This document shows positions 42,618-52,972 of a stretch of 52,972 nt of DNA, in pieces. Source of the DNA: a virus; the IMG/VR virus record IMGVR_UViG_3300029373_000006. One strand, 5' to 3'. Both the position numbers and the translations under genes were made by a program. A model generated the notes under the pieces. The model was not told the DNA's origin. It was given only the letters and a program-made list of their open reading frames with translations, and did no database searches. The stretch's first letter is position 1. The number at the start of each line of letters is the position of its first letter.

Positions 42618-43873
42618 TGGCTGTCACGCTGGAACCGTTTCAGGAACGGGCGTTGAGCCAACTGCGATCCGGAAACGTTCTGGTCGGCGAGGTCGGGTCC
42701 GGCAAATCGATCGTGGCCATCATGTGGTGGCTTCGGACGTGCTGCCGGACCCGTTCGGGCGAGTCTGGCAGCGGAAGGACGCTCATGCCGCTCAAAGGCT
42801 CGTCCGATCTGCTCATCATCACCGAGGCGAAGAAGCGCGATAAAGCCGAATGGGGCGATGATCTCGTCAAATTCGGCCTGCATATCGGGACGAACAAGCC
42901 GTCCGGCGTGGAGATCACCGTGGATAGCTGGCAGCGCATCAAAGCCCATCACGATTTCCATGGCGTGATCATATTCGATGAGCAGCATGCGACCGGAACC
43001 GGGGTCTGGAGCAAGGAATTCATCCATATCGCCAAGGCACAAGGCAATCAATGGATCCTGCTGTCGGCGACACCTGCGGATTCGTACGAGGATCTCATTC
43101 CCATATTCGTGGCGAATGGGTTCTACAAGAACAAGACCCAATTCATGACCATGCATGCCGTGTACGATCGATGGGCGAAGTATCCGAAGGTCAACGACTG
43201 GAGGCATACTGATATTCTGGAGAAGCTCAAACGACGGATCATGGTGCCGATGAAACGTCCGAAGGACCGTGGCCCCAGTCGCAATCCCGTCTACCAAATC
43301 GTCGTGGATCACGACAAACAGGCCCTGAAGACCCTGAGAAGGGAACGGAAGGATCCATGGACGGGGGAGCCGCTCAAGAACGTATCACAGTACTGCTTCA
43401 CCCAGAGGAAACTGGTGAATTCGGATCCGAGTAGGATTAAGGAAGCGACAGATATCTGCATCCGTCATCCGAGGATCGTGATATTCTACAACTACGATTT
43501 CGAACTGGAGGAGCTGCTGAGCCTGCGGAGGCGGACGGGCATTCCGGTGTACCAGTACAACGGGCATCGTCATGATGATATTCCGCAGGACGGCGATTGG
43601 ATCTATCTGGTGAACTATGGATCCGGGGCCGCAGGGTGGAACTGCACGCAGACCGATACCATGCTGTTCTATTCGCTCAACTACTCCTATCGGATCATGG
43701 AACAGGCGGCAGGGCGCATCGACAGGATCAACTCGCCGTTCAAGGAACTCAACTATTATATTCTGCGCAGCTTCGCCCCGATCGATTCGGCGATCCTGCG
43801 GGCGCTTGCGAACAAGGAGACCTTCAACGAGCGGACGTTCGCCTCGAAGGATATTTCCGGGAAGGAGGGTTAG
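42617..43873 (+). CDS. SF2 DEAD/DEAH (SNF2-like) helicase.
   Basis: Motif I 'GEVGSGKS', motif II 'IIFDEQH', motif III 'LSATP' and motif VI 'QAAGRIDR'. Confidence 0.65.
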   Translation: MAVTLEPFQERALSQLRSGNVLVGEVGSGKSIVAIMWWLRTCCRTRSGESGSGRTLMPLKGSSDLLIITEAKKRDKAEWGDDLVKFGLHIGTNKPSGVEITVDSWQRIKAHHDFHGVIIFDEQHATGTGVWSKEFIHIAKAQGNQWILLSATPADSYEDLIPIFVANGFYKNKTQFMTMHAVYDRWAKYPKVNDWRHTDILEKLKRRIMVPMKRPKDRGPSRNPVYQIVVDHDKQALKTLRRERKDPWTGEPLKNVSQYCFTQRKLVNSDPSRIKEATDICIRHPRIVIFYNYDFELEELLSLRRRTGIPVYQYNGHRHDDIPQDGDWIYLVNYGSGAAGWNCTQTDTMLFYSLNYSYRIMEQAAGRIDRINSPFKELNYYILRSFAPIDSAILRALANKETFNERTFASKDISGKEG

Positions 43874-43874
43874 G

Positions 43875-44315
43875 ATGACCTATGTGATGGATGGAGGCGA
43901 TCCGGACAGGATCGACGTCTATGATCTGGCGAGACGAATGAGCCCATGCGACTGCGATTCGGAGGTTCCGATCGCAGTTCAGATCGAGACATCGGGAAGG
44001 CCATTGCGTGATTTCTACGGTAATGAGGTCCCTTTCGAACTCGGGACGTATTGCATACGATGCCAGAAGCGAGGTCTTGTGCAGGCATATTTCGACGATC
44101 TGGTTCAGATTCCGCCAAGTGCAATGGTTCAGATTCGGTCGATCATGCCGTGCGAGCACTATCATTCGTGGGAGATCACGGCTGCTTTGTGCAGGAAGGG
44201 AGAGCGGATGGCCGCATATTCACGCGTCCAACGCCTTCATCTGCTCTATTGTCGGACATGCAGAAGGGTCTATAGGATCCCGTTGGCATACGATCTTGCG
44301 GTGTTTCGGACATGA
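43875..44315 (+). CDS. Cys-rich zinc-ribbon protein.
   Basis: It follows a 'gaaggagggttaggatg' RBS and carries several CxxC/CxxH pairs. Confidence 0.4.
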   Translation: MTYVMDGGDPDRIDVYDLARRMSPCDCDSEVPIAVQIETSGRPLRDFYGNEVPFELGTYCIRCQKRGLVQAYFDDLVQIPPSAMVQIRSIMPCEHYHSWEITAALCRKGERMAAYSRVQRLHLLYCRTCRRVYRIPLAYDLAVFRT

Positions 44316-44319
44316 CGAC

Positions 44320-44665
44320 AAGGCAAAAGTATGCAGGAAAGAAGGCTGCCTGCATACTTTTTATGTCCGAGCCTGCATACTTTTTTAAAAACTATGCAGG
44401 TTTGGACCTGCATAGTTTTGATGTAAACTATGCAGGTTTTCCGGAAAAGTATGCAGAAAAACCTGCATACTTTTTTGAGGGTCGATGTGCCCTGAGGCCT
44501 TGGAATCATTGGGTTTTCGGGGTGCCTGCATACTTTCGCGCGTTTTTTTTATCTCCTTATTATTTTGAAAAAGAAAAAAAAAGTAATAATACAAAGAAAC
44601 GCTGGCGAAGAAAACGCGCGAAAGTATGCAGCGGCCTGATACCTGCATACTTTTTTAGAAAGGAA
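44320..44665. promoter_or_regulatory. Repeat and hairpin array, a candidate replication origin or operator cluster. There are at least 11 copies of CTGCATA(C/G)TTTT in both orientations flanking a ~75-bp AT-rich core.
   Basis: Forward copies are at 44325, 44391, 44426, 44445 and 44615; reverse copies at 44349, 44372, 44407, 44462, 44524 and 44642. A 17-bp inverted repeat 'ctgcatactttcgcgcg'/'cgcgcgaaagtatgcag' brackets the AT-rich stretch 44542-44614. Confidence 0.6.
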
Positions 44666-44671
44666 TGAAAC

Positions 44672-45043
44672 ATGTCACATCATGACAAGAACCAGGAAGT
44701 CTATATTTACGAACTTAACGAGATCCATCCGTCTCCAGAGCGGGTTGCTATCTTCCTCGAAACGAGCGTCGACGATGTCCTGAAGGCTCTTGGCCATCCA
44801 AGAAACCACGGCGTATGTCGAGGCATGCATATTTGCTGGAATGACGCCCGCAACATCAAAGCCTACAAACCGGTCCGCATTATCGAGAAGGATCTTATAT
44901 TTCCCAGTGTGACCCATATGGCCTTCTATTATGGATGCAAGGATCAGGAGATCTACAATGCACTTAAGCGTCCTGACGGATTCTGGTATGGATGGCACCT
45001 CGAGCATGTCGATTCAGTTCCGGAACCGACTTATGTCGAGTAG
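44672..45043 (+). CDS. Hypothetical protein.
   Basis: It follows a 'tagaaaggaatgaaacatg' RBS. Confidence 0.4.
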   Translation: MSHHDKNQEVYIYELNEIHPSPERVAIFLETSVDDVLKALGHPRNHGVCRGMHICWNDARNIKAYKPVRIIEKDLIFPSVTHMAFYYGCKDQEIYNALKRPDGFWYGWHLEHVDSVPEPTYVE

Positions 45044-45173
45044 GTGTAGGCTCGCGACAAAAACATCGCGAATAGAGGTAAGAGTGGGGAAGAGTTTGCC
45101 TTATTTTCCGAGCAATCCTTTCTACGGGCGGTACCGTTCCCCACTCTTATTTTTCTCTGTCGAAAGGAGAACC

Positions 45174-45494
45174 ATGAGTTTGGAACGCGACTTCCAACGA
45201 AAGGTCATCAAGGAGATCGGAAAACGTCTTCCAGGATCGCATGTGCTGAAGAACGATCCTAACTATATTCAGGGAATCCCCGATCTTCTTGTTTTATATA
45301 AGGATCGATGGGCCGCCCTTGAGGTCAAGAAGAGTGCTGACGCTAAGCATCAGCCGAATCAGGATGACTACGTGGCACAGATGAATGACGATTCGTTCGC
45401 GGCGTTTATCTATCCCGAGAACGAGGAATACATTCTCGACAAGCTTCAACAGCACATGACCAAGTCCCATATTTCCACGGAGGTTGCATCATGA
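45174..45494 (+). CDS. VRR-NUC domain nuclease.
   Basis: 'GIPDLLVLYKDRWAALEVKK' is a PD-(D/E)xK core in the VRR-NUC arrangement. It lies near the SNF2-like helicase, a typical pairing. Confidence 0.5.
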   Translation: MSLERDFQRKVIKEIGKRLPGSHVLKNDPNYIQGIPDLLVLYKDRWAALEVKKSADAKHQPNQDDYVAQMNDDSFAAFIYPENEEYILDKLQQHMTKSHISTEVAS

Positions 45495-46123
45495 TGCGTT
45501 TCAATGATCATCACAATCTTGAGGGCCTTCATGCCTTCATGGGAGCCAGCAAGCATTCCTGGCTTCGTTACGATGACGATCATATGGCCGATATGTTCCG
45601 ATCGTCCCTTGCGGCACAACGCGGAACCGAGCTGCATGCCCTTGCGGCTGATCTCAATAAACATCGTGTGGCTCTGCCAAAGACCCATCTGACGTTGAAC
45701 GACTTTGTCAATGATGGCCTGCACTATCGCATGTCGCCCGAAGTGGTGTTATATTTCTCACCGAATTGTTTTGGCACCGCAGACCTCATCGGATACGACG
45801 ACAAGAAGAAGCTGTTGCGCATCTTCGACCTCAAGACCGGAAGCGGCGAAGTCAAGCACTTCGATCAGTTGTACATCTACGCTTCGCTGTTCTGTCTTGA
45901 ATACAAAGTCAAGCCGATGAACCTTCAGTTCGACCTTCGTCTCTATCAGAACGATCACATCAAGATCGCCACCAACGCCGATCCAAAGTACATCAAGCTT
46001 GGACCGAACACTGATATTTATGAAGAGGTCAGCCCGGATGAGATTGCACACATCATGGATCGAATCCAGCACTTCGATCAATTGATCAACAAGCTGCGTG
46101 CCGAGGAATCGGAGCAGTGGTGA
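45491..46123 (+). CDS. PD-(D/E)xK (RecB/Cas4-like) exonuclease.
   Basis: 'TADLIGYDD...LRIFDLKTG' plus the 'QLYIYA' QxxxY motif. Confidence 0.5.
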   Translation: MMRFNDHHNLEGLHAFMGASKHSWLRYDDDHMADMFRSSLAAQRGTELHALAADLNKHRVALPKTHLTLNDFVNDGLHYRMSPEVVLYFSPNCFGTADLIGYDDKKKLLRIFDLKTGSGEVKHFDQLYIYASLFCLEYKVKPMNLQFDLRLYQNDHIKIATNADPKYIKLGPNTDIYEEVSPDEIAHIMDRIQHFDQLINKLRAEESEQW

Positions 46124-46148
46124 TGATATTTTCAGGAAAGGCAACGTC

Positions 46149-48932
46149 ATGGTCGTGTTAATGGAAGACGAGCCCAACTCGTTGTCCCACATCGGCGTCA
46201 AGCGCCGTTCCGGAAGGTGGCCGTATGGATCTGGCGAGGACCCTTACCAGCACGAGGACTTCTACAAGCGATATTTGGATCTCAAGAATTCCGGTCTCAC
46301 CGAGAAAGAGATCGCCGATTCCATGGGGATCACCACGACGAAGGTTCGTGCTCGTAGGACCATTGTCTATAACGAGCAGCTTGCCCAGCGCCAGCATCGC
46401 GCCTACGAGCTCAAGCAGAAGGGATATTCCAACACCAAGATCGGCGAGATCATGGGTGTGAACGAATCCACTGTTCGATCCCTTCTCAATCCTTCCAGTC
46501 GTGCCCGAGCCAATGCGTCAACCATCATCGCCAACAATCTCAAGGAGACTATTGGTAAGGACGGAGCCGTCGACATTGGCAAAGGCGTGGAGCAGTATCT
46601 GGGATATTCTCAGGACAAACTCAAGGTTGCTGTGGCCATGCTTGAGGAGGAAGGCTACACCACCCATTATATTTACACCAAGATGGGTGGTCCAAATCAC
46701 ACCACGGTCAAGGTCCTTGCTGCTCCTGGTGTGACTGTTCGAGATCTGGTCAATGACCGAAGTAAGATCAAGAATATCGGTATGTCCCTTGACGAGCCTC
46801 ACGAAGGTGGCGTTGGAATCAAGAAGCCGGTATCCATCGATTCTAAGCGTCTTGGCGTTGTGTACGCTGAGGACGGAGGAACCGAACGTGATGGTGTCAT
46901 GCTTATTCGTCCAGGAGCAGCTGATCTCGAACTTGGCGGTTCACATTACGCGCAGGTCCGCATCAACGTTGACAACAGCCATTACCTAAAAGGTATGGCC
47001 ATGTACGGTGATCCGGATCAGTTCCCGGATGGTGTAGACATCATATTCAACACGAACAAGAAACGGGGAACCCCGATCGAGGGAACCGGCGATAATTCGG
47101 TATTGAAGCCGCTCAAGCGACTGACCAATCCGGATGGAACGAAAGGCGATGTCGATTGGAGCAATCCATTCGGCGCCACCATAGATCCGATCAAAGGTCA
47201 GTATGAGTATGACGATCCAAAGACCGGGAAGAAGAAACAGTCATTGATCAATAAGGTCAATGATGAAGGCGACTGGGATGACTGGTCGAGAAGCCTTCCT
47301 TCCCAGATGCTTTCCAAGCAGGATATTTCTTTGGCCAAACGTCAACTTGGCATTGATCTTGATCGTCGTCAGCGAGACTACGATGAGATCATGGCGTTGG
47401 ATAATCCAGTAGTCAAGGCCAATCTTCTCAAGTCATTTTCTGATGAGTGCGATTCAGCGGCAATTCATATGAAGGCTGCGGCGATGCCTCGTCAGAGGAC
47501 TCAGGTTATTTTGCCGATCCCTTCCTTGAAGGACAATGAGATCTATGCTCCGAACTTCAGACCTGGCGAGAAGGTGATTCTTATTCGCTTCCCGCATGGC
47601 GGAAAGTTCGAAATCCCTGAGCTCACGGTCAACAATAACAACAAGGAAGCCCGGGCGGCTCTTAGCGGATCCAAGGATTGCGTCGGTATCAATGCCAAGG
47701 TGGCCGAACGACTCTCTGGCGCCGATTTCGATGGCGATAACGTTCTGGTTATTCCAAACAACCGAGGCGAGATCAAGACTCGATCTGCTCTTGACGGTCT
47801 GAAGAACTTCGATCCCAAGACCGCATATCCTAAGTATGAAGGTATGCGAGTCATGACGAAGCGTGAAAAGGGAAGAGAGATGGGTATCGTCTCCAACCTT
47901 ATTACGGACATGACCATCAAGGGTGCTCCTTGGGAGGATATCGAGAAGGCGGTCCGCCATTCGATGGTGGTCATCGATGCTGAGAAGCATGAGCTGAACT
48001 GGAAACAGTCCGAACGTGACAATCAGATCGATCTTCTCAAGCAGAAGTGGCAGAGTCGAGGAGATGGAAAATATGGTGGAGCATCCACTCTTATTTCCAG
48101 ATCCAAGTCCACCGAACGCGTTCCAGAACGTAAGCTTCGTTCGGCCAAGGAAGGCGGATGGATCGACCCGGAAACGGGCGAGAAGGTCTACGTCAAAACC
48201 GGTCGAGAGAAAGTCGTTCCCGCCAAGAAGGACAAGGACGGAAAGGTTATTTCTTGGAAGAAGGTTCCAGCCGAATCGGTAACGGTGAAGATGGACCTTG
48301 CCAAGGATGCCTACAAACTTTCGTCCGGAACGGCGATGGAAGGTGTCTATGCTGACTATGCAAATTCTCTGAAGTCCCTGGCAAACCAAGCCCGAAAATC
48401 GTATTTGAATTCTGGTTCGTTCAAGTATGATCCCCAAGCTGCGAAAACATACTCGTCAGAGGTCAGTTCCTTGAAAGCCAAACTCAATACGGCTCTCAAG
48501 AACGCCCCTTTGGAACGCAAGGCCGAGCTTCTTTCGGACAGTTTGTACGAAGCCAAGAAGGCGGCTCATCCAGAATATGAAAAGGATGATCTGAAAAAGC
48601 TTTCCAACAGGTGCCTTAATGAGGCCCGTATTGCAGTGGGCGCCAAGAAGCAATTGGTCGACATCACTGATAAGGAATGGGAAGCCATTCAGCATAGGGC
48701 CGTTAGCAAGAATACCCTTCAGCAGATCCTGCAAAACGCGGATCCTGACAGAGTCAAGCAATTGGCCACTCCGAAACAGGGTGTTGCTATGTCGGCGTCC
48801 CTTGTTGCGAGGGCCAAGTCCATGCTCAATCGTGGTTACACACAGGCTGAAGTAGCTGATAGACTTGGCGTATCAATAGATACACTGAAGCGTAATGTGA
48901 CTACTAAGACTAAGGTGGCAGACAATGGCTAG
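46149..48932 (+). CDS. Putative single-chain two-barrel (YonO-like) RNA polymerase with sigma-region-4-like HTH modules.
   Basis: The beta'-type signature 'IRFPHGG...SGADFDGDNVLVIP' (nt ~47670-47760) compares with 'NADFDGDQMAVHVP'. The beta-type signature 'KGMAMYGDPDQFPDGVDIIFNTN' (nt ~46990-47057) compares with 'GDKMAGRHGNKG...DGTPVDIVLNP'. HTHs are 'LTEKEIADSMGITTTKVRARR', 'YSNTKIGEIMGVNESTVRSLL' and the C-terminal 'YTQAEVADRLGVSIDTLKRNV'. Confidence 0.45.
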   Translation: MVVLMEDEPNSLSHIGVKRRSGRWPYGSGEDPYQHEDFYKRYLDLKNSGLTEKEIADSMGITTTKVRARRTIVYNEQLAQRQHRAYELKQKGYSNTKIGEIMGVNESTVRSLLNPSSRARANASTIIANNLKETIGKDGAVDIGKGVEQYLGYSQDKLKVAVAMLEEEGYTTHYIYTKMGGPNHTTVKVLAAPGVTVRDLVNDRSKIKNIGMSLDEPHEGGVGIKKPVSIDSKRLGVVYAEDGGTERDGVMLIRPGAADLELGGSHYAQVRINVDNSHYLKGMAMYGDPDQFPDGVDIIFNTNKKRGTPIEGTGDNSVLKPLKRLTNPDGTKGDVDWSNPFGATIDPIKGQYEYDDPKTGKKKQSLINKVNDEGDWDDWSRSLPSQMLSKQDISLAKRQLGIDLDRRQRDYDEIMALDNPVVKANLLKSFSDECDSAAIHMKAAAMPRQRTQVILPIPSLKDNEIYAPNFRPGEKVILIRFPHGGKFEIPELTVNNNNKEARAALSGSKDCVGINAKVAERLSGADFDGDNVLVIPNNRGEIKTRSALDGLKNFDPKTAYPKYEGMRVMTKREKGREMGIVSNLITDMTIKGAPWEDIEKAVRHSMVVIDAEKHELNWKQSERDNQIDLLKQKWQSRGDGKYGGASTLISRSKSTERVPERKLRSAKEGGWIDPETGEKVYVKTGREKVVPAKKDKDGKVISWKKVPAESVTVKMDLAKDAYKLSSGTAMEGVYADYANSLKSLANQARKSYLNSGSFKYDPQAAKTYSSEVSSLKAKLNTALKNAPLERKAELLSDSLYEAKKAAHPEYEKDDLKKLSNRCLNEARIAVGAKKQLVDITDKEWEAIQHRAVSKNTLQQILQNADPDRVKQLATPKQGVAMSASLVARAKSMLNRGYTQAEVADRLGVSIDTLKRNVTTKTKVADNG

Positions 48933-49197
48933 TACCAAAGACTATCTGCTTACCACGATTGACAACCCATACAACCCATGGACCAATTGGGATCAATGGT
49001 ATGACTATGATCAGCGTATGGGCTATTGCACATGCTCCTATCTAGCACGCATCATGTCAGTCACTGATGCGATGACTGATGTTGAACTAGATCGTGAGTA
49101 TGAGTTTGCAATGGACGAGATCATCGAGTACGATGTGATCGGTCAATACGCAAAGATCAAGAAGAATAATCCTACACCAATGGGAAAACTCAACTGA
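48925..49197 (+). CDS. Hypothetical protein.
   Basis: A 90-aa ORF overlapping the upstream stop. Confidence 0.35.
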   Translation: MASTKDYLLTTIDNPYNPWTNWDQWYDYDQRMGYCTCSYLARIMSVTDAMTDVELDREYEFAMDEIIEYDVIGQYAKIKKNNPTPMGKLN

Positions 49198-49563
49198 AAA
49201 GTACCGATTTCGTTGCGATCTCTCGCTCTTCATCGATAAAACAATATGATTCGAGCCAAGGAGTCATATTGTTTTGATGGAGGGGGAGGGGTCGCGACGA
49301 ACCGGCACCCTCCCGCATCGCCCGACTCCTTATTTTTTCTCCGACGGGATATTTTTCGAGAAGTCGATTACCCAGACCACGTGTTTTGGGGCTTCAAATG
49401 GGAGCGCCGCTTGGGTCCGAAACAAAATTCCTCGCTCATGGCGGTTGCGAAAACCGGAGGAAACTCCTTTCGACATTAGGGACAACCATTCGGCACTCTC
49501 TTTTGGGGAACCAAAACCAATCAGAACTCCTCGAAACCATTACAGAACTGGAGGCGATATTTC
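49198..49563 (+). promoter_or_regulatory. A 366-nt noncoding region at the early/late boundary; a candidate late promoter, leader, or cos/pac region.
   Basis: No ORF longer than 60 aa. It contains a GC hairpin 'ggaggggtcgcgacgaaccggcaccctcc' and 'ggaggaaactcct'. It lies upstream of the putative terminase small subunit. Confidence 0.4.
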
Positions 49564-49911
49564 ATGGGGCGACGTAAGAAGCTCGACGGATCGTCTTCCT
49601 CTCAGTTCTCGCCCGCTTCCAATCCGGAGGAACGCGAGAATCAGATGATTTCGCTCGCCGTCAACCTTGCCGAGCAACAGCTTCGCGAGGGGACGGCTTC
49701 ATCTCAGGTCATCGTGCACTATCTCAAGCTTGCTTCGACTCGAAACAAGCTTGAAGAGGAGAAGATCAAGTATGAGACGGCCATGCTTCAGGCCAAGAAG
49801 GATGCGCTGAACAAATCTGGTCAGCTCCAGGAGCTCATGGCCAATGCTTTGGATGCATTCCGTTCATATTCCGGAAACACAGAAGAGAGCGAGGTATCAA
49901 ATGGAAGATGA
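49564..49911 (+). CDS. Terminase small subunit, putative.
   Basis: A basic N-terminus 'MGRRKKLDG' and a 115-aa helical body, at the head of the packaging and structural gene block. Confidence 0.35.
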   Translation: MGRRKKLDGSSSSQFSPASNPEERENQMISLAVNLAEQQLREGTASSQVIVHYLKLASTRNKLEEEKIKYETAMLQAKKDALNKSGQLQELMANALDAFRSYSGNTEESEVSNGR

Positions 49912-51124
49912 ACTTTATCACTTCGGTGTAAAAGGCATGAAGTGGGGCGTTCGAAGGTATCGGAACGAAGATGGATCACTTACCTCGCTCGGTAAGAAGC
50001 GCGATAAGATGCTTTCTGATCGGAAAGTCGCAAAAAGGAACTCAACCACTTCCAATATCGTTAACGCGGAATATTCCCGTCGCGAATTTGAGGACGCCAA
50101 GACTCGACTGAAACTTGAAAACCAGACGAAAAAGTCAAAGCGTCAGCAGGATCTTGAGAAAAAGTATCTGAAGCAAGGATTCACCAAAGACGAGGCCGAG
50201 ATCAAAGCTTATAATCGAGCTAAGACAGAAACAATCCTTAAGGTTGCCGGAGGTATTGCTTTAGCATCCGCAGCGGCCTATGTTGCGTACAAGCATTACG
50301 ATAAAGTCACCGATCAGGTATTCAAAAAGGGAAGTAAGATCGGTCGTTTGACGAACGACGGATCGGAACCGACCAATAGGGCGTTTTATGGCTTCGTCAA
50401 CAAGCACGACAAAGATCGGTATGAAGGTCTTTATGGCAAGACGCTTGGCGCGAATGGAACCGTGTATCGTAAGGCCATGCGAGCCGCAGGAGATATTAAT
50501 ATTGCCTCTCCTGAATCCGCTCGAAAGGTTCTTAAGAATATGTTTGACACTGATAAGCAATCTTTCGATGGTTTTAAGAGGACCATAGACGAGTTGACCT
50601 CCGTTGTTCCTCCTATAGGGAAACAAGGACAACTTTGGCAAAAGGCCAAACGGGAACTTGATTCCGGGAAGATCGGTGATAATACCTATAAGGCATTCAA
50701 CACACTGCTTGTTAATCACACCAAGGAGCAACAGCCGATCAATGATAAATTCTATTCGGCCATGAAGAAGGCCGGATATGGTGCGATCCGCGATGTGAAC
50801 GATAAAGAGAATTCCGGATATTTTGCCAGGAATCCGTTGATTGTATTCGATACCGACAAGATCGATGTAGAGGGATTCACGAAGCTCGGGAGTGATCATA
50901 TCAATTTCATGTTCACTAAAGAGCATGGAAAGATCGCTGCTCATGCGTTGGCAAACGAGTACGGTCCTATCGGAGCCGTATTTGCGACTTCTATGGGAGC
51001 GATGAAACTTGTTAAGCGATCCAGTGAGACAAAATTCGTTGAAAACTATCGCAAGCAACATCCTGAGAGCACATTGTCTAATAATGAAATTCTGAAGATG
51101 AGAGATCGGATTGTCAATGCTTAA
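49901..51124 (+). CDS. GMKWG-family paralog 4 (408 aa, large variable C-terminal domain).
   Basis: 'MEDELYHFGVKGMKWGVRRYRNEDGSLTSLGKKRDK', with the core at 49931-49953. A hydrophobic 'VAGGIALASAAAYVAY' segment follows. Confidence 0.6.
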   Translation: MEDELYHFGVKGMKWGVRRYRNEDGSLTSLGKKRDKMLSDRKVAKRNSTTSNIVNAEYSRREFEDAKTRLKLENQTKKSKRQQDLEKKYLKQGFTKDEAEIKAYNRAKTETILKVAGGIALASAAAYVAYKHYDKVTDQVFKKGSKIGRLTNDGSEPTNRAFYGFVNKHDKDRYEGLYGKTLGANGTVYRKAMRAAGDINIASPESARKVLKNMFDTDKQSFDGFKRTIDELTSVVPPIGKQGQLWQKAKRELDSGKIGDNTYKAFNTLLVNHTKEQQPINDKFYSAMKKAGYGAIRDVNDKENSGYFARNPLIVFDTDKIDVEGFTKLGSDHINFMFTKEHGKIAAHALANEYGPIGAVFATSMGAMKLVKRSSETKFVENYRKQHPESTLSNNEILKMRDRIVNA

Positions 51125-51668
51125 CGATACCGAAATCAAAGATCTTTGTATTACCCGGCATATGATCACGCCATTCGATGAGCCCCAACTTCAGCCATGC
51201 AGTTACGACGTCACGCTCTCTAAGAGCATCGTACGATATTTCGGTCGTGGTGAGATCAATGCCATGGATTACACCCTTCATGATCTGGAGTATATTCGTT
51301 TCGCCATGAACGATGACGGTTTCGTTCTCGATCCAAATGAATTTATCCTCGGATCAACAAATGAGGGCGTGACCATTCCGAAGAACATCGCGGCGCGCTT
51401 CGAAGGTAAATCGTCACTCGGTCGTCTTGGACTCGCCACTCATGTGTCTGCGGGATTCATTGATCCTGGGTTCGCCGGTGACATTACTCTTGAGATCAAG
51501 AATCTTAACAACCATCCCATTCGTATATTTGCCGGTATGAGGATCGGTCAGTTGTGCTTCTTCGACCTTCATGACGATGTCGATCGCGCCTACGGATCCA
51601 ACGGGCTCGGATCACATTACCAGAACCAGTCCGGCCCAACTCCTTCGCGAGGTGATGGCGATGCGTGA
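51111..51668 (+). CDS. dcd: dCTP deaminase (Dcd/dUTPase fold).
   Basis: 'PCSYDVTL...GKSSLGRLGLATHVSAGFIDPGFAGDITLEIKNL...GMRIGQLCFF' is the Dcd family pattern. Confidence 0.65.
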   Translation: MSMLNDTEIKDLCITRHMITPFDEPQLQPCSYDVTLSKSIVRYFGRGEINAMDYTLHDLEYIRFAMNDDGFVLDPNEFILGSTNEGVTIPKNIAARFEGKSSLGRLGLATHVSAGFIDPGFAGDITLEIKNLNNHPIRIFAGMRIGQLCFFDLHDDVDRAYGSNGLGSHYQNQSGPTPSRGDGDA

Positions 51669-52098
51669 GCTTTATCATTACGGCGTCAAAGGCATGAAGT
51701 GGGGCGTTCGGCGCTATCAGAACGCCGATGGCACACTCACCTCCAAAGGCAAGGCCCGTCAGGCCAAACAGACCAAGAAGGCCCAGAAGAAGTGGGACAA
51801 GAACGCTAGTCGACATTGGATTGAAGGTTATAACAAAGCAGTCGATTATTCCAATAACAATTTCATCGACAAACTCAACGAGAAGTACAAAGATTACGAT
51901 TTCTCGGATCCAACCGATAAGAAGATCCAGAAGGTCTATAAGCGCTATGTCGAGGAGTACGTAAATGGCTTCAACAGCATTCTCGAAAAGAGCTATCGCG
52001 AGGTTCTCGGCGATCGCCCGGACGATCCAAGAGCTATTCGATCTCTTCCGTTCTATAACGATGCCAATTCGTTGTATCAAGCATGGCTGAATGATTAG
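51661..52098 (+). CDS. GMKWG-family paralog 5.
   Basis: 'MRELYHYGVKGMKWGVRRYQNADGTLTSKGKARQAKQTKKAQKK', with the core at 51688-51710. Confidence 0.6.
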   Translation: MRELYHYGVKGMKWGVRRYQNADGTLTSKGKARQAKQTKKAQKKWDKNASRHWIEGYNKAVDYSNNNFIDKLNEKYKDYDFSDPTDKKIQKVYKRYVEEYVNGFNSILEKSYREVLGDRPDDPRAIRSLPFYNDANSLYQAWLND

Positions 52099-52106
52099 GA
52101 GATATC

Positions 52107-52460
52107 ATGGCCGATGAACTTTATCATCATGGAGTTAAAGGCATGAAGTGGGGCGTTCGACGAGCCCGAAAGAAGTATTCTAATAAGTCTCTTCGTCAGT
52201 ATAATGCGAATCAGAGGAACGCCAAAAGTCTCAAAAGAGATCTTGATTCGAACTTTGATTCCTCGACCGGTCTGAAATTGGATCCCGAGACACGGAGCGC
52301 CTACAAACATGAGTACAACAGAGCTGTGGAAACCGGACGACAATGGCTTCAGACGAGGCAGGATATTTTAAACATGCCAGTGAATTCCACCACGGTTTCC
52401 GACATCAAGAACCGATATAATAAGACCCGTCGCGGAAACGTGTATTATCCTTTCGCGTGA
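52107..52460 (+). CDS. GMKWG-family paralog 6.
   Basis: 'MADELYHHGVKGMKWGVRRARKKYSNKS', with the core at 52137-52159. It follows an 'aggagatatcatg' RBS. Confidence 0.6.
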   Translation: MADELYHHGVKGMKWGVRRARKKYSNKSLRQYNANQRNAKSLKRDLDSNFDSSTGLKLDPETRSAYKHEYNRAVETGRQWLQTRQDILNMPVNSTTVSDIKNRYNKTRRGNVYYPFA

Positions 52461-52476
52461 ACGACAAGGAGGAACC

Positions 52477-52972
52477 ATGACCCTATCGAGCACAGCCGTT
52501 CCGAAATACTACGGTCAGTTCCGTGACAGGGTCATGGCCGGAGAGATCCCGGTATGTCATGAGATCGAGATGGAGATGAACAGAATCGATGATCTCATCC
52601 GCAATCCCGGGATCTACTATGACACCGATAAAGTCGAAGGATGGGTATATTTCTGCGAGAAGGAACTCACCCTGACTGACGGATCTCCGGTTCATCTTCT
52701 CGATAGTTTCAAACTCTGGGGCGAGCAGATATTTGGTTGGTACTACTTCGTCGAACGATCGGTCTATATTCCGAATCCACATGGAGGTCCGGGTCGATAC
52801 GAGAATCGTCGGATCTGCAAACGTCTGATCAACAAACTATATTTGATCGTGGCACGTGGCGCAGCCAAGACCATGTTCGCCGAATTCGTCCAGGCATATT
52901 TCCTCATCATGGACACGTCGACGACCTCGCAGATCGTCGTGGCTCCGACGATGAAGCAGGCTGAGGAAACCA
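52477..52972 (+). CDS. terL: Terminase large subunit, 5' portion (continues at window position 1).
   Basis: AAGGAGG sits 5 nt upstream of the ATG. The window end 'LIVARGAAKTMFAEFVQ...' is identical to the window start. Confidence 0.75.
   Translation, partial: MTLSSTAVPKYYGQFRDRVMAGEIPVCHEIEMEMNRIDDLIRNPGIYYDTDKVEGWVYFCEKELTLTDGSPVHLLDSFKLWGEQIFGWYYFVERSVYIPNPHGGPGRYENRRICKRLINKLYLIVARGAAKTMFAEFVQAYFLIMDTSTTSQIVVAPTMKQAEET

Follow-up and report, generated by a model that had tools for sequence, protein, structure and literature searches.

The 927-aa product encoded at 46149..48932 (+ strand) of the window, a 52,972-nucleotide stretch of viral DNA (IMG/VR record IMGVR_UViG_3300029373_000006), is most likely, judging from its motifs and predicted fold, an RNA polymerase in a single chain that follows the two-barrel plan of the cellular enzymes and carries its own DNA-binding domains. 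The ORF list agrees with the original prediction on this reading frame (+ strand, ATG start). The longest version of the ORF begins with a GTG at 46098 and would give 944 aa; the ATG is backed by a ribosome-binding site, GGAAAGG, which lies 8 nt before 46149, and by full-length homologues that begin at the identical residue, for example P0001 (927 aa, 97% identity, 100% coverage). The assembly of the window is circularly permuted, bases 1-123 recurring unchanged as 52850-52972, and Rfam and tRNA scans over the whole length of the window gave no matches.

Family membership and predicted catalytic core

The protein belongs to phrog_4291, named "RNA-dependent RNA polymerase" (E=0, 1189 bits; residues 4-918 align to positions 4-906 of a 909-position profile). 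The polymerase assignment is not new. Koert et al. (bioRxiv 10.1101/842583) already described an RdRP-like core, a DxDGD motif and flanking helix-turn-helix (HTH) domains for this family, with RdRP found by HHpred at 95.7% probability. The architecture, which had been considered unusual, is instead the standard one in a family that forms about 1,200 clusters when grouped at 50% identity, and it was already in print; the window protein is a fairly divergent member. Homologues are carried by 250 phage records, most of them labelled 'helix-turn-helix DNA-binding domain protein' (a SEA-PHAGES label); the SEA-PHAGES actinobacteriophage records listed give isolation hosts, and among isolates the best relative is that of Bifidobacterium phage BitterVaud1 (55%). 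The window adds one further family member, probably from a bifidobacterial or gut phage. Known members, such as the 'putative RNA polymerase' of Faecalibacterium phage FP_oengus, gp75 of Lactococcus phage 1706, gp106 of Rhodococcus phage ReqiPepy6 and the SEA-PHAGES genes, show full-length homology at 37-55% identity, share the architecture (N-terminal HTHs, two-barrel core, C-terminal HTH) and lie, as here, beside cos, after VRR-NUC and RecB/Cas4-like nucleases and before a small conserved gene; nothing essential differs between them and the window protein. Long fusion relatives were examined for extra domains, none of which proved informative: P0307 (1809 aa) matches only phrog_8314, of unknown function, and the N-terminus of P0354 matches phrog_24711. 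A literature search for biochemical or genetic work on any family member found none.

The two polymerase-type motifs and the RFPHGG element that had been picked out from the sequence were all located, and their key residues are invariant. The first motif, SGADFDGDNVLVIP, occupies residues 523-536; RFPHGG lies at 480-485, 43 aa upstream, and the second motif, KGMAMYGDPDQFPDGVDIIFNTN, at 281-303, 242 aa upstream. The motif matches are not due to chance. S523, G524, A525, D526, D528, G529, D530, R480, P482, R271, K281 and G282 do not vary in 140 representatives, which were drawn from 50%-identity clusters and share 43-68% identity with the window protein. The core strands of a beta-like double-psi beta-barrel (residues 267-305; 46947..47063, +) carry R271, H278 and K281-G282, and the H-Y-L-K-G found there resembles the H-G-N-K-G motif of beta. 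The beta'-like catalytic barrel (residues 450-536; 47496..47756, +) encloses R480-x-P482-H483 (47586-47603, +) and the Asp triad D526/D528/D530 (47724-47738, +), ADFDGD at residues 525-530 being the metal-binding DxDGD triad of a beta'-type barrel. Downstream, a helical segment (residues 571-614; 47859..47990, +; helices 571-590 and 595-614 in the model) contains M578, G579, N583, L584, D587, M588, D610, K613 and H614, all invariant in the same representatives, and aligns with 'IGEISNNITK' of YonO in a profile-profile comparison; we consider it a candidate bridge-helix region.

The AlphaFold model (pLDDT 76.8, pTM 0.60) places two double-psi beta-barrels in one catalytic core, the arrangement that defines the two-barrel superfamily, and its best structural match is QDE-1. 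Among BFVD structures, phage 'RNA dependent RNA polymerase' entries were matched at E 4.4e-7 and 1.4e-4, the best match (E 7.7e-8) being unnamed. At the sequence level, PF05183 (RdRP) was matched at E <= 0.01 by 22 of 51 diverse relatives, the best scorer, P0319, reaching 25.1 bits for a curated cut-off of 23.8, and it is the sole non-HTH family among the 25 Pfam families listed as matched by most members. The window protein itself gave no match to PF05183 even at E <= 1. Searches of PDB sequences with the protein and two family profiles (phmmer, hmmsearch) returned only HTH proteins as significant, with weak matches (E about 0.8), located at the Asp triad, to AR9 beta' and P23-45 gp96. None of the outcomes that had been named in advance as contrary to a polymerase was seen, and no primase or Toprim matches were obtained. 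The proposal of a single-chain two-barrel core is thus backed by PF05183 in the relatives and by the invariant catalytic motifs, and the PF05183 matches, together with the HTH and winged-helix modules described below, support the assignment as an enzyme.

DNA-binding modules, N-terminal motif and other polymerases

Four DNA-binding modules flank the core. The first HTH (residues about 38-70; 46260..46358, +) is formed in the model by helices 38-47, 52-59 and 63-90 and has weak Sigma70_r3 and AsnC-type matches at 51-69, weaker matches overall spanning 45-69. The second (residues 76-113; 46374..46487, +), of sigma region 4 / LuxR / HTH_23 type according to Pfam, is matched by Sigma70_r4_2 (E 1.8e-12, best stretch 76-113), HTH_23 (1.9e-9) and GerE (4.7e-6), and the model helix 95-113 falls within it; HTH_23 was found in 50 of the 51 members and Sigma70_r4_2 in 49. 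A phrog_664 match covers two stretches within residues 40-114. A winged-helix-like domain follows (residues about 140-205; 46566..46763, +), and the C-terminal HTH (residues 883-918; 48795..48902, +; helices 883-894, 899-906 and 910-917 in the model) is matched at 894-917 by Sigma70_r4, HTH_3 and HTH_24. The three HTHs of the original prediction were thus confirmed, with a winged helix in addition; their description as sigma-like was not, as regulators of other types match equally. Region 4 scores are above the cut-offs (Sigma70_r4_2 47.1 bits for 25.7; Sigma70_r4 36.7 bits for 24.1), and this HTH is common to the sigma-70 family and the window protein. However, the same HTHs give equal or higher scores with LuxR, DeoR, transposase and winged-helix regulators. 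No model of the core-binding and -10-recognising region 2, such as Sigma70_r2, is among the Pfam and NCBIfam matches listed, and TIGR02937 remained below its cut-off and covered the region-4 part only. By sequence comparison, the HTHs of the polymerase are therefore generic tri-helical HTHs and not a sigma factor.

Ahead of these modules lies a short conserved motif (residues 11-34, SLSHIGVKRRSGRWPYGSGEDPYQ; 46179..46250, +), disordered in the models (pLDDT below 50 at residues 1-32 in one and 1-35 in another) and related to DUF7211. All 140 representatives have S21, G22 and R23, while H14, G16, G27 and G29 are at least 90% conserved. When a DUF7211 HMM was searched, members of the polymerase family ranked immediately below the six true DUF7211 ORFs; in 107 of 112 the best match was N-terminal. 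The genes of these six proteins, each headed by DUF7211, lie in the left (virion) arm of the window phage. Within the phage collection, DUF7211 matches are limited to the host genera of the polymerase family. A literature search on DUF7211 found nothing.

YonO of the Bacillus prophage SPbeta, to which the polymerase core had been likened, is a processive, DNA-dependent enzyme that transcribes the late operon adjoining its own gene (PMC5467207). Both proteins are single chains of about 100 kDa in which the beta-like barrel precedes the beta'-like one, both have the DxDGD triad and the RxPH and G-x-(V/I)-S-N-x-I-T motifs in the same order, PF05183 covers many YonO homologues as well as members of the polymerase family, and both genes lie just upstream of structural genes. 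The term YonO-like nevertheless proved too specific. Comparison by hhalign with a 26-member YonO family alignment returned one alignment, collinear over three motifs and not significant (E 0.25), and nothing significant was obtained with the single YonO sequence or with the core regions alone; the best structural match is QDE-1, and the invariant C-terminal cysteines of YonO (C799, C802, C816, C819) have no counterpart, no cysteine being invariant or at least 90% conserved in the polymerase family alignments. In addition, no HTH family is on record among the 120 YonO homologues listed, and YonO is devoid of the DUF7211-like N-terminal tag. QDE-1 (Neurospora) and the plant RDR2 (PF05183) are only 11-12% identical in sequence, lack HTH modules and are eukaryotic RNA-silencing enzymes acting on RNA or ssDNA. 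With P23-45 gp64 and P74-26 gp62 (non-virion) and with P23-45 gp96 and crAss-like phi14:2 gp66 (virion), we detected no sequence relationship beyond the Asp triad; none of the four is described with fused HTH modules, and P23-45 gp96, unlike the window polymerase, is fused to the tape measure protein.

Genome setting

The polymerase gene is not, as had been stated, the last one before the gap: a gene for a conserved 90-aa partner (48925..49197, +; phrog_4303, function unknown, E 1e-29) follows, its start overlapping the polymerase stop codon. The partner is 44% identical to gp55 of Streptomyces phage RosaAsantewaa and 45% to gp76 of Lactococcus phage 1706, which occupy the same position. The 366-nt noncoding gap described at an early/late switch is real (49198-49563), but it holds the cos site. 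By alignment to four cos phages, the cos region spans 49279..49364; the physical right end ...GCATCGCCCGACT stops at about 49327 and the left end begins with CCTTATTTTTTCTCC at about 49328. The region matches annotated or sequenced termini of ReqiPepy6 (a 3' cos overhang feature), RosaAsantewaa and 1706, and is also conserved in two relatives. In phage records with a homologue, the distance between the polymerase gene and the right genome end is always about 350-550 nt. On the circular map it abuts the packaging block, and its position fits the first gene of a virion block equally well as an early/late switch. Only 25 nt separate the exonuclease gene from the polymerase gene, which argues for co-transcription with the upstream nuclease genes.

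At the head of the operon holding the polymerase gene, 1.5 kb upstream, are eleven copies of an iteron, CCTGCATA(C/G)T, confined to 44328-44651 in a genome-wide look and conserved in the closest relative that has flanking sequence. No exact match was found in the 14.8-kb locus around the gene of a 69%-identical relative (L006), in which the polymerase is conserved. Given this confinement and the lack of an exact match there, we rejected the iteron as a genome-wide promoter for the polymerase. A simple scan of 49198-49563 found no sigma-70-type promoter on the plus strand; in a sigma-70 and terminator consensus scan of 43500-52972, counts were no higher than in shuffled controls and neither gap had a plus-strand promoter. 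The early region contains its own terminator-plus-promoter-like units with a TATAGT -10 element, which say nothing on what reads the late genes.

Possible roles of the polymerase

The role we prefer, to which we give an even chance, is that of a single-chain DNA-dependent two-barrel RNA polymerase of the QDE-1/YonO/PF05183 branch which, with its own DNA-binding modules, would transcribe a block of phage genes, preferably the packaging and structural ones. The beta-like barrel (about 262-305) would bring the basic R271 and K281, and the beta'-like barrel the Asp triad, to the active site. The built-in modules (two HTHs and the winged helix ahead of the core, a further HTH behind it) would presumably place the enzyme on phage promoters, a step for which cellular RNA polymerases borrow a sigma factor. 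Expressed together with the upstream nuclease genes, the polymerase would then transcribe its gene block independently of the host polymerase, and, if YonO is a guide, its target would be the packaging and structural genes, which begin immediately beyond cos once the genome is circularised, so that it may be late genes that it transcribes. The predicted fold, the invariant motifs and the domain architecture are what the analysis shows; catalytic activity, a DNA template and promoter recognition by the HTHs are inferred, as are, with the greatest reserve, target genes and timing.

Two observations call this late-gene role into question, the name 'structural protein' given to the 1706 homologue and the virion-block-like tag at the N-terminus, and they make delivery in the virion a live, if tentative, alternative. 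The polymerase would in that case be made late, packaged through its DUF7211-like N-terminal tag jointly with the DUF7211 proteins whose genes surround that of the terminase, and ejected with the DNA, so as to transcribe the first phage genes, in parallel with crAss-like gp66, P23-45 gp96 and N4 vRNAP; two of the solved single-chain phage two-barrel RNA polymerases are indeed virion enzymes. The virion proteins of phage 1706 were reportedly identified by mass spectrometry in the paper on that phage. Its polymerase homologue, ORF75, was named 'structural protein' by the depositors (EU081845), as was ORF7, which has two DUF7211-like motifs; however, this label comes from a database record, particle preparations could carry along a protein that has four DNA-binding domains, and orf62 and orf71, two other 'structural' proteins of 1706, are without DUF7211. 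The N-terminus is disordered yet invariant and detectably DUF7211-related, the window phage has six DUF7211 proteins in its virion arm, DUF7211 and the polymerase family share host genera, and the gene abuts the packaging block. Nevertheless, the gene is co-transcribed with recombination nucleases and not with head or tail genes, the terminator-plus-promoter units of the early region are ordinary ones whose good -10 hexamer would suit the host polymerase, and a folded 927-aa enzyme would need to pass through a siphovirus tail. It is possible, although we would not count on it, that the N-terminal peptide (LxHxG...SGRYPWGSG) is a diverged DUF7211 tag and that DUF7211 acts as a hitherto unrecognised particle address label for co-ejected proteins in Gram-positive siphoviruses.

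An RNA-templated or priming enzyme, either an RdRP making dsRNA or antisense RNA or an iteron-bound origin polymerase that primes or activates replication, is in our view improbable. QDE-1, the best structural match, does have both RdRP and DdRP activities (PMC9508822), and the conserved iterons lie close upstream. However, the 'RdRP' name (RefSeq, PHROG) derives from the Pfam family label rather than from an assay, YonO, whose homologues share PF05183, is DNA-dependent, and modules that bind dsDNA point to DNA as the template. A replicase with its own primase domain is already present in the lineage, and primase activity of the 1706 homologue GP55 was shown experimentally (PMC12205980), so that a priming role for the polymerase is not needed; the absence of exact iterons from the L006 locus despite the conserved polymerase also argues against an origin-bound enzyme. 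Least probable of all is a polymerase-like core that has lost catalysis, in a protein that acts as a DNA-binding regulator or binds the cos ends: the HTH label of most records, the regular position near the right genome end and a weak resemblance of some HTHs to those of terminase small subunits (Terminase_5 in 20 of 51 members; phrog_7067, phrog_309) would suit this reading, but 140 distant representatives all keep the Asp triad and the basic residues of both barrels, and no part of the protein is better conserved than the core (50-76% identity), a pattern expected from selection on catalysis.

The practical value of the window is limited, as it adds one more member to the family, but it places cos and brings out the possible DUF7211 link. 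If DUF7211 is such an address label, it would direct six proteins and the polymerase into the particle of the window phage, a third, independent solution for moving a two-barrel RNA polymerase through a long tail; as the enzyme would bring its own promoter-recognition HTHs, the phage could do without the host polymerase right from the start of infection. Forrest et al. (PMC5467207) left open whether YonO-type single-chain RNA polymerases find promoters alone or with a helper; the present family, in which three HTHs and a winged helix are fused to the core, may be the most tractable place to answer this question.

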